DNA of 64,000 bases from contig OZ024741.1 of assembly GCA_964016885.1 (NCBI GenBank), forward strand, positions 321,284,001 to 321,348,000. The letters are read 5' to 3'. This document shows, one piece after another, positions 5,928 to 28,897 of this stretch. This stretch comes from Eledone cirrhosa. Its lineage: Eukaryota. Position numbers and translations under genes: made by a program. The notes below the pieces were generated by a model that did no database searches, had not been told where the DNA came from, and was given only the letters and a program-made list of their open reading frames with translations. Positions within the stretch are counted from its first letter, which is position 1; each line of letters opens with the position of its first letter.

Positions 5928-6122
5928 AGACGTAGTAACACAACAGTTAGTTCACCATACCTAGAACAATTGTTTCACCTTATGCGGATCTGATCCGCAT
6001 AAGGTGAAACAATTGTTCTCGGTATGGTGAACTAACTGTTGTGTTACTACGTCTAACAAACTCATCCCATGGACTGAGTGCTCTACCACTACGGATATTA
6101 CCTTCCAGTGTTCTACCTCTCT
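5928..6122. mobile_element. PLE pLTR-type fold-back footprint (family C): about 63-bp inverted arms plus about 68-bp tail, truncated hammerhead
   Basis: 5928-5990 is the near-perfect reverse complement of 5992-6054. Contains TCC-GCATAA-GGT-GAAAC-AATT-GTT. Flanked by (TA)n. Confidence 0.7.
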
Positions 6123-6135
6123 CTATATATATATG

Positions 6136-6611
6136 AGGAGTGAAACCCCATACCGGTCTCCCTGCAACAAGCTTTAACACCCCGGCGGGCAGGCGCTGCA
6201 AAAAAACATCCGGAAACTAACCATGCATCCCAGACCCAGCTTCAAATGACCCAGGCGGGCAGGTGCAGAAACAAACGTCTCAAAATAAGCGTTGATTACC
6301 TGACCCTGTGCGTATCAACAATGGTAAGGTTGTCACCACATCTTGTAGCGGATAAAAAATTTGTCCGGGAAAGACTGCCCTAACACCGGCCAGAGTTACC
6401 TCCCTTGACCTACTGCAAAATCAAAACACGCTTTTTTTGCGAAGAATGAACTCTAACGTGAACTTACCCCCCAAAACACTTTCCGGGCCATGTAAGGAAC
6501 ACTTTTAGTTATTTATGCCCTTGAGAAGCCCATCCGGGCGAAACGTACGTAGGTGCTGTTTTAAATAAACATGTATTAACGGTCTGTTCTCCGATTTCTT
6601 ACTTTTCCACG
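6136..6611 (+). mobile_element. Probable PLE 3' terminal region (pLTR) ending in a hammerhead
   Basis: GC-richer island between (TA)n tracts that carries the ribozyme at 6517-6556. Confidence 0.55.
6517..6556 (+). ncRNA. Minimal type-I hammerhead ribozyme, U3-A8 core variant
   Basis: gccc-TTGAGAA-GCCC atcc GGGC-GAAAC-GTAC-GTA|ggtgc. Stem III is the palindrome ACGTACGT. Predicted cleavage after 6551. Confidence 0.75.
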
Positions 6612-6982
6612 TATATATATATATATATATATATATATATATATATTTATATTTATTTATATATATATATAATTCAAGAAAGAAGAGTGACATGGATCGC
6701 TATACAATAAGGGCTTTATTCACATTGCTGACCAAGAAATCACCGCGAACTCGCAGCATCACTAGGGAAACGTCTTGTTGAGTCAAACTAAACCACACGT
6801 TAATACTATCCACTACACGAACGACTCCAACTGGACTACATCTAAGTGGACTGCCATAACCATAACCTGTTATCCCGTATATATATATATATATATATAC
6901 GTATATATATATATATATATATATGCATATATATTAGAGGCCATCGGATATATATATATATATATATATATATATATATATA

Positions 6983-7173
6983 GAAACGAGTAGGACCCCG
7001 ACAGCTGAGCTCAAGCCGTTTCGACGGCTAATTCGGTCCAGAATTAGCCGTCGAAACGGCTTGAGCTCAGCCGTCGGGGTCCTACTCGTTCCTATTACCC
7101 ACTCTACTACTCTAAGTATTGAGTACTTTGGTGCGTTATGGTGCACCTGGTTCCTTACCACATTTCCTTCGTT
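6983..7173. mobile_element. PLE fold-back footprint (family A), same family as the termini of the 22.5-25.6 kb element
   Basis: Short arm 6983-7035 is inverted against a tailed arm 7037-7173 that is nearly identical to 25425-25561. Embedded in (TA)n. Confidence 0.85.
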
Positions 7174-8662
7174 ATATATATATATATATATATATATATA
7201 TATATATATATATATATATATATATATATATATATATATATATATATATATATATATATATATATATATATATATATATATATTTATATATATATATATA
7301 TATATATATATATATATATATATATATATATATATTTATATATATATATATATATATATATATATATATATCCGATAGGATTCTACAAAATTTCACTCAT
7401 TAGGCATAGAAGAAGACATTTGTCGAAGGCTACCGCCGAGCGACACTGAACTCAGAACCATAACATTTGCGAAACGAACTTCTTGACCACAAAGCGACGC
7501 TTGCGCCTAGTTATGAGAGCTTACTGGTAAATCTCAAAAAGATGCATCCGATAGAAAGTTGGCTTCTTTTTATATACATACGTTAACCGACAATCAAATC
7601 TCTCTCTCTCTCTCTCTCTCTCTCTCTCTCTCTCTCTCTCTCTCTCTCTCTCTCTCTGGCATGTTCTCATCTAAAAAAAATAACCATCATTGATACAGCA
7701 TGCTTTTGTTGTAATGCAAGAACAATGAGTCTTCAAGCTCTTATCTATAATGGTTTCTAATTTAGGCACAAGATCAACAATTTTAGAGAAGGGGAAAGTC
7801 GAGTAAATCGACCTCAGTGCATTACTGGTACTTTATTTCGTGGAGATTTCATCTATAATACACCCTCGTTAAAGTCGTTTTGTCAAGCCAGGTTTTTCTC
7901 CAGTATGAATCCATAATATCCCGTGAAAGAACCTCTGTGATTTTTTATTGACTGCTCTTTCAACTCTCTGTACATTACTGATTAATTCCAACCGAAATCC
8001 GTGTTAATTGTTCTTTCATCTGATCTCTCCTAGTGTTGCAACTTCCTATTAACAGCCACTAACTGTTGTTTGACGTCTTGTAATTTATGCACAAATGTTC
8101 TCTTTTTACGAAACATTTTTACAGCATCCAAGCTTTGTTTCTATTCTATTTTCAGTGATTGATAGCGTTATTGGTAAAAGGTAACCCAGTACAACCTGTG
8201 CATGGTCGGGTCGCCGGTGACTAAACCGACAACCCCACCAATATATGTATATATAGTTGCACAAGAGTGTTGTGTATCTTGGTTGTTACATAGTAACTTC
8301 CTGGTGACCAGCAGGTCCTAGCGATCTAAATCACTACAAGTCAGTAGTTTATCACAGGTAGGTGATAATGACGGAGTATTCATTTATCAAATAATGGTAG
8401 TTAAGACGGGATTAAATCCCCATAATTGTTTATTGCCGAACCACTTCACTACTGGATGAGCGTGCATGGCCACCGGCATATCACAATGATTGCATATCTG
8501 CACCAATGATAGCATAAGAATCTGAAGAAATCACATGAATAACCATGTAACAGAAATATATATTGCAATAAACAGTTATGGTGATTTAATCTTATCTTAA
8601 CTACCGTTATTTGATATATATATATATATATATATATATATATATATATATATATATACATA

Positions 8663-8877
8663 CGAGGGTGTGCAGAAATGTTCCTGGCTTGATCGCTGCT
8701 ACAAGGGCCTGGTTGGAGATCCAACCTTCCGAGTTCTTTTTCAGGGCTTAGAAAAACTGAAGGACCGCTACAATAAGTGTGTAAATCTGAGAGGGAAATA
8801 TGTTGAATAAAATCATAATTAACTGATCCTCCTATATTTTATTTTACCCAAAGCCAATAACATTTAGCACCCCCACG
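8663..8877 (+). mobile_element. Mariner-derived non-autonomous element (MITE)
   Basis: TA|CGAGGG...CCCCACG|TA imperfect TIRs. Retains the transposase C-terminus GLEKLKDRYNKCVNLRGKYVE*. Confidence 0.85.
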
Positions 8878-26900: not shown

Positions 26901-27544
26901 TTACATACATACATGCTCTCATACATATATACATACATACTTACATATATGCATATATACATACATGCTCTCATACATATATACATACATACTTACATAT
27001 ATGCATATATACATACATACATATATACATACATACTTGCATATATACATATAACTCAAAACATAGAGGGCCTCACATGCAATGACATCAAAACCAACAC
27101 CACCACCCCCCACCTCCCCTCACCCCACCCCCACCCACCACACACAGACACACATACATACACATACACACACAACACACACACACACATAAACACATAT
27201 AATCAGATATACATAATTGCCTAAATTTCAATAAAAGAATCTTGTTTTTGTTAGAATATCCTGCTCTATATCTCTTGTTGAGAATAATAGCAGAACATAC
27301 ACACATGCATACATACAACCACAAATACATATAAACAAATACACAATGAAAGAAGAAAAAAACATATATGTACGTCGAAATATTACATAATATCTCCATA
27401 AATTGTAATTAATCCTGACTGCTGTAAATATCTGTGTGAAAAAGTTACGCGTTCCAACATGCACACGCACACACATACACACTTACAGTCACCCATAAAT
27501 ATATGTTTATATATGTATAGAATCCTTTTATATATATGTATAGA

Positions 27545-27865
27545 CCCCTTTCAGTCACTAATGACCTTGGAATTTGCACCTAGAAAGTTTCCATCCAAAG
27601 CTCAAGCCTTGGCACGGTTTATTTGTGGAAGACGACCAGTCGCCCATGCTATACCAGTCGCCCCTTTCCACGCCACCGATGTTGTCCAAGGGAAAAGCAA
27701 TGGCCGATACAGCTTGGCACCAGTGACATCGCAACACATTTCTACAGCTGCGTGAACTAGAACGACTTGAAATAAAATGTCTTGCTCAAGGACACGAAGC
27801 ATCACCTTATACGAGAATCGAACTCACAAACCTCCCAATTGTAAGCCTAACATTCTAACCACTAC
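27545..27865 (-). mobile_element. tRNA-derived SINE
   Basis: The - strand reads gtagtggttag...gagttcgattc...gtgtccttgagcaagaca. Confidence 0.7.
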
Positions 27866-28026
27866 GACATACATACATACATATATGTGTGTGTGTGTGT
27901 GTGTGTGTGTGTGTGTGTGTGTGTGTGTGTGTGTGTGTGTGTGTGTGTGTGTGTGTGTGTGTGTGTGTGTGTGTGTGTGTGTGTGTGTTGTATATATATA
28001 TATATATTTTTTTTTTTTTTTTTTTT

Positions 28027-28535
28027 GCGAGGTTTTTGATATGAAATCGTGTGTCGAAACAAATATTGTTATACTTGGGGAGGGTCATATTGTTGTAATA
28101 ATATTGGCCAGAAATAATAACAGAACACACTCACTGTTTGGTTGGTTTTCGCTTCTGTATCTTTTATATCTCCACAGTTAATTCATTCGGTCCTCAATGT
28201 TTATCATTGACTGACCAACGGTAAAAAATACAGATATAAACATATATATATATATATATATATATATATATATGGCGTAGACATACAATACAACACTAGG
28301 AACATAATAGTACCACTGATGATGTTGCAGATGTGCAACGAAAGAACTTTGTTAGACTATATATATGTGTATATATCTGTATTTTTTACCGTTGGTTAGT
28401 CAATGATAAACATTGAGGACCAAATGAATTAACTGTGGAGATATAAACGATACAGAAGCGAAACAGTGAGTGTGTTCTGTTATTATTTCTGGCAATATTA
28501 TTATAATAATATGGCCCTCCCCAAGTATAACAATA
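28027..28535. mobile_element. PLE fold-back footprint (family E) with about 180-bp arms and a central degenerate hammerhead
   Basis: 28063-28245 is the reverse complement of 28360-28535. CTGATGA-t-GTTGCA gatg TGCAAC-GAAA at 28316-28343. The terminus matches the PLE end at about 41815 and a fragment at about 18990. Confidence 0.8.
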
Positions 28536-28586
28536 TATATATATATATATATATATATATATATATATATATATATATATATATAT

Positions 28587-28897
28587 AAATGAAGTAATTC
28601 CGTCGGAAAAGTCCAGGAAAAAAGAGTGCTCTATGTAGGTAACAGAGCTTAATAGTTATGTAATAAACAACATAAGGCAATTATTCCATTTACCAGTGGT
28701 TTCAATCCTCAGAATGAAAAAATCCTGGTCTGTTTATTGAATTTGGATTTTTTTTTTTTTTTTTTTTTTTTTTTAAATCCAAATTCAATAAACAGACCAG
28801 GATTTTTTCATTCTGAGGATTGAAAGCAAAATCTTTTGCTTTTAAGAAACCACTGGTAAATGGAATAATTGCCTTATGTTGTTTATTACATAACTAT
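28587..28897. mobile_element. PLE fold-back footprint (family D)
   Basis: 28653-28750 is the reverse complement of 28775-28897 around a T-run. The left arm carries a tail also found alone at 33020-33055 and 33210-33278. Confidence 0.85.
28806..28865 (+). ncRNA. Canonical type-I hammerhead ribozyme
   Basis: tttcatt-CTGAGGA-ttgaaagcaaaa tc ttttgcttttaa-GAAACC-act-GGTA|aatggaa. Cleavage after 28858. Confidence 0.85.

Follow-up and report, generated by a model that had tools for sequence, protein, structure and literature searches.

A twin RNA motif, present across a clade of Penelope-like elements (PLEs), is tied to both ends of their insertions. It was noticed in a 64,000-nt stretch of the Eledone cirrhosa genome (GCA_964016885.1, contig OZ024741.1, positions 321,284,001 to 321,348,000 of the forward strand; hereafter the window), where an original prediction made from the letters alone described a hairpin in the tails of four families. 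The motif is real: its bulged stem covaries, it lies at a fixed distance from insertion junctions, a second copy (copy 2) stands downstream of the first (copy 1) and ahead of the start codon, and each fully called inverted insertion of an unselected sample has its two ends divided between the copies. We put at roughly 70% the probability that the two hairpins fix where the reverse transcriptase (RT) starts on the element RNA, likely with one bound RT subunit each, a reading drawn from sequence comparison. Two internal starts are already known from the Poseidon element PAc; what is new is the twin hairpin, a probable further kind of cis-acting RT-positioning element.

A bulged hairpin present twice

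The motif, R-CUC-Y…R-[UH]-GAG-Y-RCU, is predicted to fold into a bulged hairpin larger than first described, with a stem that runs on above a 2-nt bulge into an upper part absent from that description. All five instances originally cited are present in the window, as is a variant (Table 1), and the pattern in its first form matches seven times, where 300 local shuffles gave 0.07 matches on average and at most 1, which bears out the enrichment expected of it. Window families E and G have long-loop versions that went unnoticed at first (the family labels E to K and D2 were coined in this analysis); the suggestion that family E lacks the motif was rejected when a long-loop copy 1 was found in a longer copy (L465). 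Throughout the 3.0-Gb host genome, which is rich in microsatellites and holds more than 100,000 motif-bearing copies of Hydra elements (the PLE clade concerned), RCTCN{8,18}GAGYRCTYT matches 128,291 times and its reversed control 3,310 times. By terminal pair, these matches divide into 16,682 G..C, 2,030 A..C, 2,792 G..T and, by subtraction, about 106,800 A..T; the odds ratio is about 314, but the counts are weighted by copy number and are therefore not independent evidence.

Pairing was assessed in 85 family-level copies anchored on CTC and GAG, three listed copies being left out for offset errors; anchored counts take the place of a covariance model because the variable loops, about 3 to 80 nt long, could not be aligned by MAFFT. 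The terminal pair is G-C in 70 copies, A-U in 7, U-A in 2 and G-U in 1; in the other 5 it is either unpaired or undetermined. Above the 2-nt bulge, whose first base is U in 82 of the 85 copies, a pair is formed in 82/85 (59 C-G, 22 U-A, 1 U-G); in other registers, with a bulge of 0, 1 or 3 nt, the same position pairs in 2, 3 or 9 copies. The next two pairs up are formed in 56/78 and 40/56 copies, and all four Watson-Crick types occur. Among the 56 copies with loops of at least 11 nt, 138 of 168 upper-stem pairs are formed, the maximum in 5,000 shuffles (a test that ignores the relatedness of the copies) being 107. Mapped on an RT tree of 46 families with 30-81% identity, the four pairs need at least 4, 11, 11 and 8 Watson-Crick switches in copy 1 and 1, 1, 8 and 9 in copy 2, so that compensatory switches recur along the tree; the covariation that the original prediction had called for is thus present. 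Short-loop copies folded alone form the lower stem, weakly, in 76 of 80 cases.

The second copy lies 52-96 nt downstream of the first, in the order hammerhead ribozyme, tail with copy 1 in it, copy 2 (a few bases past the tail), 5' leader and ATG. Ordinary insertions are without copy 2, which lies beyond the far end of the tail; it is seen in nine read-through sequences of the host genome, from eight families, at a spacing of 68-96 nt. Such loci are rare, and both copies are present in families A (L050 and G000:C1:11228992), C, F (L056 and relatives), G, H, I and K, the endonuclease at L057 being that of family K and not of D, while the read-through sequence of D2, a sister subfamily of D, has a long-loop copy 2. 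Endonuclease-protein searches, in which the motif was not used, led to the read-through loci of C, K and D2. Short-loop searches behind C and D tails returned 4 and 1 matches, none of them read-through, because the copy 2 loops of C and D2 are long (about 80 and 63 nt). A double-motif pattern matches 852 times genome-wide against 229 for its control, some satellite hits included.

Likewise, a protein-only scan of marine metagenome contigs confirmed 256 stretches and returned the best of them as 77 loci, of which 42 have the start of the open reading frame (ORF) with at least 145 nt upstream; these fall into 36 families at 80% DNA identity. Two copies occur in 27 of the 36, one in 5 and none in 4, and one of the four motif-less families has two copies in a sister locus. 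The spacing is 52-83 nt (median 62). Antisense controls gave three single and no double motifs, ORF windows one single and no double, and shuffles three doubles in 7,200. These contigs are perhaps collapsed assemblies, and several come from one accession series. Among published Hydra consensus sequences (Craig et al. 2021, PMC8557442), the twin motif can be seen by eye in Hydra-1_Ajap, a single one in Hydra-2_Amil and Hydra-2_Ajap, and divergent forms in Hydra-1_Crog and Hydra-1_Obim; the hosts are coral and sea cucumber for the former and, for the divergent forms, copepod and octopus entries. Three motif words matched six times in the accessible supplement of that paper, four times in Hydra and twice inside other sequences, line breaks perhaps hiding further matches.

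Some further occurrences deserve mention in their own right. A 58-bp satellite array at about 14,233,500-14,266,600 of G000:C1 (L064-L083, L122-L125, L152-L180) has as its unit a family-A-like copy 1 and a 29-nt spacer that ends AT-rich just before the next hairpin, and so amounts to start site and hairpin repeated head to tail; the array may be parasitic on the element's RT or may have arisen by ordinary expansion. In L258, a D-like tail word stands directly before a family C-like copy 1 and tail, as a chimera or a nested insertion, and short tandem repeats in L390 (about 560 and 3140-3960) mimic the motif pattern upstream of an E-like hammerhead. Either copy can accommodate a loop of about 30-80 nt (L318, L370, L465, L284, L144), and that of family C copy 2 contains an internal duplication. 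An alternative fold predicted for family A at L050:1400-1540 is possibly a switch and possibly a mere likeness of the two copies. Pairing between copy 1 and copy 2 through a near-palindromic GAG-YR-CUC was rejected because most families have GAGCACU in both copies, which is not fully pairable.

Insertion ends at the two copies

According to the original prediction, a short inverted arm stops about 3-12 nt before the motif. The gap is fixed, and in the window it measures 3-5 nt (A -5, C -4, D -3 and B -4, the last read from the sequence), with no case near 12. In an unselected sample of 80 evenly spaced 10-kb stretches (800 kb), 104 of 126 ends are flanked by TA, in keeping with insertion into (TA)n, and 91 of the 126, including 89 of the 104 TA-flanked ends, lie at -9 to +2 of a copy; the same intervals hold 33 of the 213 TAT/ATA sites of the read-through sequences. 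Junctions are therefore not at random distance from the motif. Among loci of the host genome selected by motif or protein, 280 of 294 TA-flanked ends lie at -8 to +1, and in the metagenome loci, once contig ends and cross-family matches are set aside, a copy is no more than 4 nt away from 15 of 16 distinct ends. The usual last shared bases are -5/-3 in family A, -2/-3 in G and -3/-2 in D2, with -4 in C; at copy 2, automatic values of 0 for A and -2 for C are too high because the alignment ran on into the TA repeat, and -3 is the value for A. Ends sit on (TA)n with A/T microhomology, typically of 2-3 nt, and TAT or ATA occurs within 10 nt upstream in 66 of 84 copies. Together with covariation, these distances lend strong support to the earlier idea of a shared element that sets the start of the cDNA, and through copy 2, which that first look could not see, the positioning role extends to both ends of an insertion.

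The two ends are also paired. In the unselected sample, each of the 21 head-to-head inverted insertions with both ends called joins a copy-1 end to a copy-2 end, for which the chance would be 5e-7 if the odds were even; one pair with an internal TA run was left out of this count. By eye, 12 further insertions with an uncalled end comprise six mixed, one with copy 1 twice and five that did not resolve, and in two more a copy-1 end is paired with a read-through arm. One end per copy is likewise found in 4/4 cases in the window and in 8/8 further family G pairs at other loci. Arm lengths do not obey a leading/trailing rule (12, 7, 6), and either arm may be longer. Two family G fragments in the window (34947-35023 and 50728-50772) end inside the TA-rich loop of copy 1.

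How the hairpins may act

If the two hairpins position the RT, the element protein, probably as a dimer, would bind both of them on one RNA, and its endonuclease would cut both (TA)n strands. Each DNA 3' end could then pair with the 2-3 A/U bases just 5' of a hairpin, and the cDNA primed in this way would run away from that hairpin. The short arm would be the copy-1 cDNA, the copy-2 cDNA would bear the tail and copy 1, and the two would be joined head to head. That arms reach well past the predicted hammerhead cut site suggests uncut RNA as the template. Lying outside the insert, copy 2 should persist only in tandem or read-through copies. The twin hairpins thus likely account for the known PLE "tail", and the need of PLEs for more-than-unit copies (PMC4209133) would be explained because copy 2 is left behind.

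Several observations weigh against such a role. In the unselected sample 35 of the 126 ends lie outside the intervals given above, about half of them in diverged subfamilies as judged by eye, and insertion L408 appears by eye to have two copy-1 ends. The upstream stretch is shared by both cDNAs and 7 of 25 pairs have their longer arm on the copy-2 side, a situation that would call for strand displacement or another RNA molecule. No copy 2 was seen in family B, for which no read-through copy was found, or in the window's D subfamily; that of family C, with its loop of about 80 nt, is atypical and comes from a single locus (L318). The CUC/GAG core is almost invariant and for that reason shows little covariation, and the stability of the hairpin is low (median -5.5 kcal/mol). 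In a 141-nt context, family A RNA is predicted to pair its two copies with each other instead (5' half of copy 1, 3' half of copy 2), and for the copy at 7101 of the window a different fold is predicted in a longer context. Finally, 14 G-U pairs are no clear excess over 11 A-C mismatches, which leaves action as RNA or as single-stranded DNA undecided.

HDV-like ribozymes (those resembling the ribozyme of hepatitis delta virus) cleave at their own 5' edge, and with that precedent the hairpins might direct cutting of the RNA, or formation of its 3' end, 2-5 nt upstream, with ordinary target-primed reverse transcription proceeding from the new RNA 3' ends. A fixed distance and a hairpin left out of the cDNA would follow from such cutting. 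We nonetheless think it unlikely: copy 1 is intact inside copy-2 arms, one-of-each pairing in 21/21 insertions would not come from two pools of RNA cut separately, Rfam gave no match to the motif in the 11 loci scanned, and the Poseidon RT starts internally regardless of the RNA 3' length (PMC11167929). It also seems improbable that the motif works at the DNA level, as a site which the endonuclease recognizes or trims so that a longer intermediate is resolved and the tail stays behind. Such a role would agree with the attribution of the tail to endonuclease-mediated resolution (PMC8557442), with the need of the D. virilis Penelope endonuclease for the tail in DNA recognition (cited in PMC11167929) and with wobble counts that do not favour RNA; base-pair covariation and loops of about 3 to 80 nt speak against a double-stranded site, and ends directly on (TA)n with A/T microhomology are as priming predicts.

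One RT molecule might also use the hairpins in turn, making the first strand from copy 2 and then extending the second DNA end from copy 1, with no need of a dimer. One end per copy would be accounted for equally well, as would the freedom of either arm to be longer, but a rule against reuse of the same hairpin would be required and the Poseidon protein is predicted to dimerize (PMC11167929); we give this little credence. That the hairpins serve packaging or translational control only, with junctions following nearby A/U-rich patches, is scarcely credible: both copies do lie in the 5' leader with TAT or ATA commonly close upstream, but this is largely refuted by the small share of such sites in the intervals that hold most ends, and strict end pairing would be left unexplained.

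Should twin positioning of the RT hold, one may speculate, with rather less confidence, that this telomerase-related RT is a two-headed machine in which two RNA tags of about 20 nt each load one subunit on one break end. An insertion would then be written from both ends at once, and the tag would lie outside the copied stretch, leaving daughters without copy 2 and inactive unless in tandem. A single rule would cover the PLE tail, the inverted pseudo-long terminal repeats (pLTRs) and the need for partial tandems. The tag would also be portable, a signal by which whatever RNA lies upstream of it could be written into (TA)n, and would be a candidate relative of the elements that position the template in telomerase RNA. 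The origin of the PLE tail and of the inverted ends was open, one in vitro study having found two start sites and no rule. A twin hairpin with fixed spacing provides a minimal, directly testable cis signal, defines the true boundaries of Hydra elements and should offer a small model for start-site choice inside an RNA by telomerase-related RTs.

In several known systems, among them the 3' stem-loops of long and short interspersed nuclear elements (LINEs and SINEs), the R2 3' untranslated region and hepadnavirus epsilon, a cis RNA structure recruits the element's RT. As far as is known, those structures occur singly and are copied into cDNA, whereas the Hydra hairpin is outside the stretch that it would launch. 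Twin priming by L1 also leads to inverted insertions, with the second L1 primer at no known fixed site; both Hydra start sites are fixed.

Poseidon PAc (Frangieh et al. 2024, PMC11167929) resembles the Hydra elements in that two internal RT starts flank the tail in vitro; both target strands are cut and extended, the target is AT-rich, and a dimer is predicted. It is a single element of another clade, however, with starts in an AC-rich stem-loop, and by eye its 97-nt RNA (Fig. S1 of that report) contains no CUC...GAG-RCU motif. The available text of the report describes no conserved or duplicated positioning element and no end pairing, whereas A/T microhomology of 2-3 nt is typical here. As for telomerase, to whose template-boundary element (TBE) the motif had been loosely likened, the comparison fails because the hairpin is 3' of the start junction and is not copied, while the TBE is 5' of the template and stops synthesis (PMC5855555). 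A closer analogue, by position alone, is the template recognition element, which lies 3' of the template, on the same side as the hairpin, and promotes template use by the RT (PMC5855555). Both telomerase elements are, as the hairpin would be, non-copied RNA beside a template and set limits to what a related RT copies; telomerase RNA, unlike the Hydra elements, is not known to have a twin copy. A description of the motif was not found in the open literature or Rfam (subscription papers, Repbase and Dfam notes, figures and preprint supplements were outside the search), and the Hydra description in the accessible text of PMC8557442 makes no mention of a hairpin, a second copy or a link to two ends.

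Carrier elements and other features

By the diagnostic traits of their proteins, and by likeness to reference Hydra proteins as judged by eye, the motif-bearing families are Hydra-clade Penelope-like retrotransposons. They had been called sequence-unrelated, which is right for the DNA in that it differs and wrong for the proteins, which form one clade (ORFs are shown for A, C and D2); an ORF was looked for in family B and none was found. The single ORF, of 712 aa in D2 and 700-740 aa in homologues, combines an RT with a C-terminal GIY-YIG endonuclease. Of 27 full-length homologues, 23 have an N-terminal RW[KR], as do families A, D2, F, G, H and K, and it was unmatched in the examined copies of C, I and E; DK[TS] (DKG changed to DKT) is present in 27/27 and in A, C, F, G, H, I and K, and was unmatched in D2 and in the E fragment. 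A CxCX5C linker precedes the endonuclease in 23/27 homologues and in D2, E, F, G, H and K, the family A linker of the window having CxC and lacking the third cysteine. Hydra-clade endonucleases are further marked by the absence of a CCHH motif; by eye, no cysteine pair was seen within the GIY-YIG core of the proteins viewed, which were not aligned to reference endonucleases. C-terminal GIY-YIG, RWK, DKT, CxCX5C, hammerhead and (TA)n targets are all traits given for the Hydra clade in PMC8557442. Pfam gave no match for five of the proteins, and Rfam, with 11 loci scanned to E=1, gave no covariance-model match to the motif, its only hits being sub-threshold microRNA matches in L056, away from the motif.

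Putative hammerhead cores, recognized by pattern, lie upstream of copy 1, and in the family A element at 22531-25560 the motif follows the hammerhead on its 3' side, in the same sense. The cores of families E and A (window 6518-6556 and 22560-22636) read UUGAGAA instead of CUGAnGA, and that of family G reads CAGAAGA.

Table 1. Hairpins, element ends and coding fragments in the window
Feature	Position	Strand	Remark
Hairpin copy 1, family C (variant bulge)	6060..6084	+	short inverted arm 5929-5990 stops 4 nt before
Family C tail at the 6060 copy	to TA repeat at ~6125	+	
Family E 3' end	6141..6612	+	hammerhead core from 6518; stops 6 nt before the long-loop copy 1 seen in L465
Hairpin copy 1, family A	7101..7129	+	short arm 6982-7034 (-) stops 5 nt before
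Family A tail at the 7101 copy			ends 3 nt before the read-through position of copy 2
Second family G arm	20939-21062	+	stops 3 nt before long-loop copy 1
Hairpin copy 1, family B	21983..22006	+	short arm 21918-21968 stops 4 nt before
Hydra-clade PLE with internal deletion, family A	22531..25560	-	
Copy-1 end of the family A PLE	22531		3' pLTR; predicted hammerhead core near 22560-22636 (-)
Linker and C-terminal GIY-YIG endonuclease fragment, family A ORF	23816..24316	-	
RT fragment, family A ORF	24425..25354	-	DKT motif
Hairpin copy 1, family A, inverted-arm tail	25489..25517	+	sense with hammerhead
Copy-2 end of the family A PLE, with tail	25560		on inverted arm 25346-25560
Hairpin copy 1, family D (G-C terminal pair)	28623..28648	-	short arm, end near 28894, stops 3 nt before
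Hairpin copy 1, A-related subfamily	32648..32676	+	A-C mismatch at terminal pair
Family A inverted insertion	35827..36028	.	one end per copy; decayed copy 1 near 35960-35988
Further hairpin copy 1, family A	46615..46643	-	unlisted before
Family G 3' end	51141..51270	-	stops 2 nt before long-loop copy 1

Families D and B have additional decayed remnants, either tails or inverted insertions, at about 33217-33277 (+) and 30106-30301 of the window. Other long inverted repeats, at 53862-54231, 54354-54705, 59789-60360 and 3997-5009, are without a strict match to the motif. The window also contains a GC-rich array of repeats of about 170 nt (55729-57007) and dispersed repeats of about 185 nt, SINE-like by size, at 17381-17535, 18317-18501, 19775-19966, 22211-22396 and 47039-47226.

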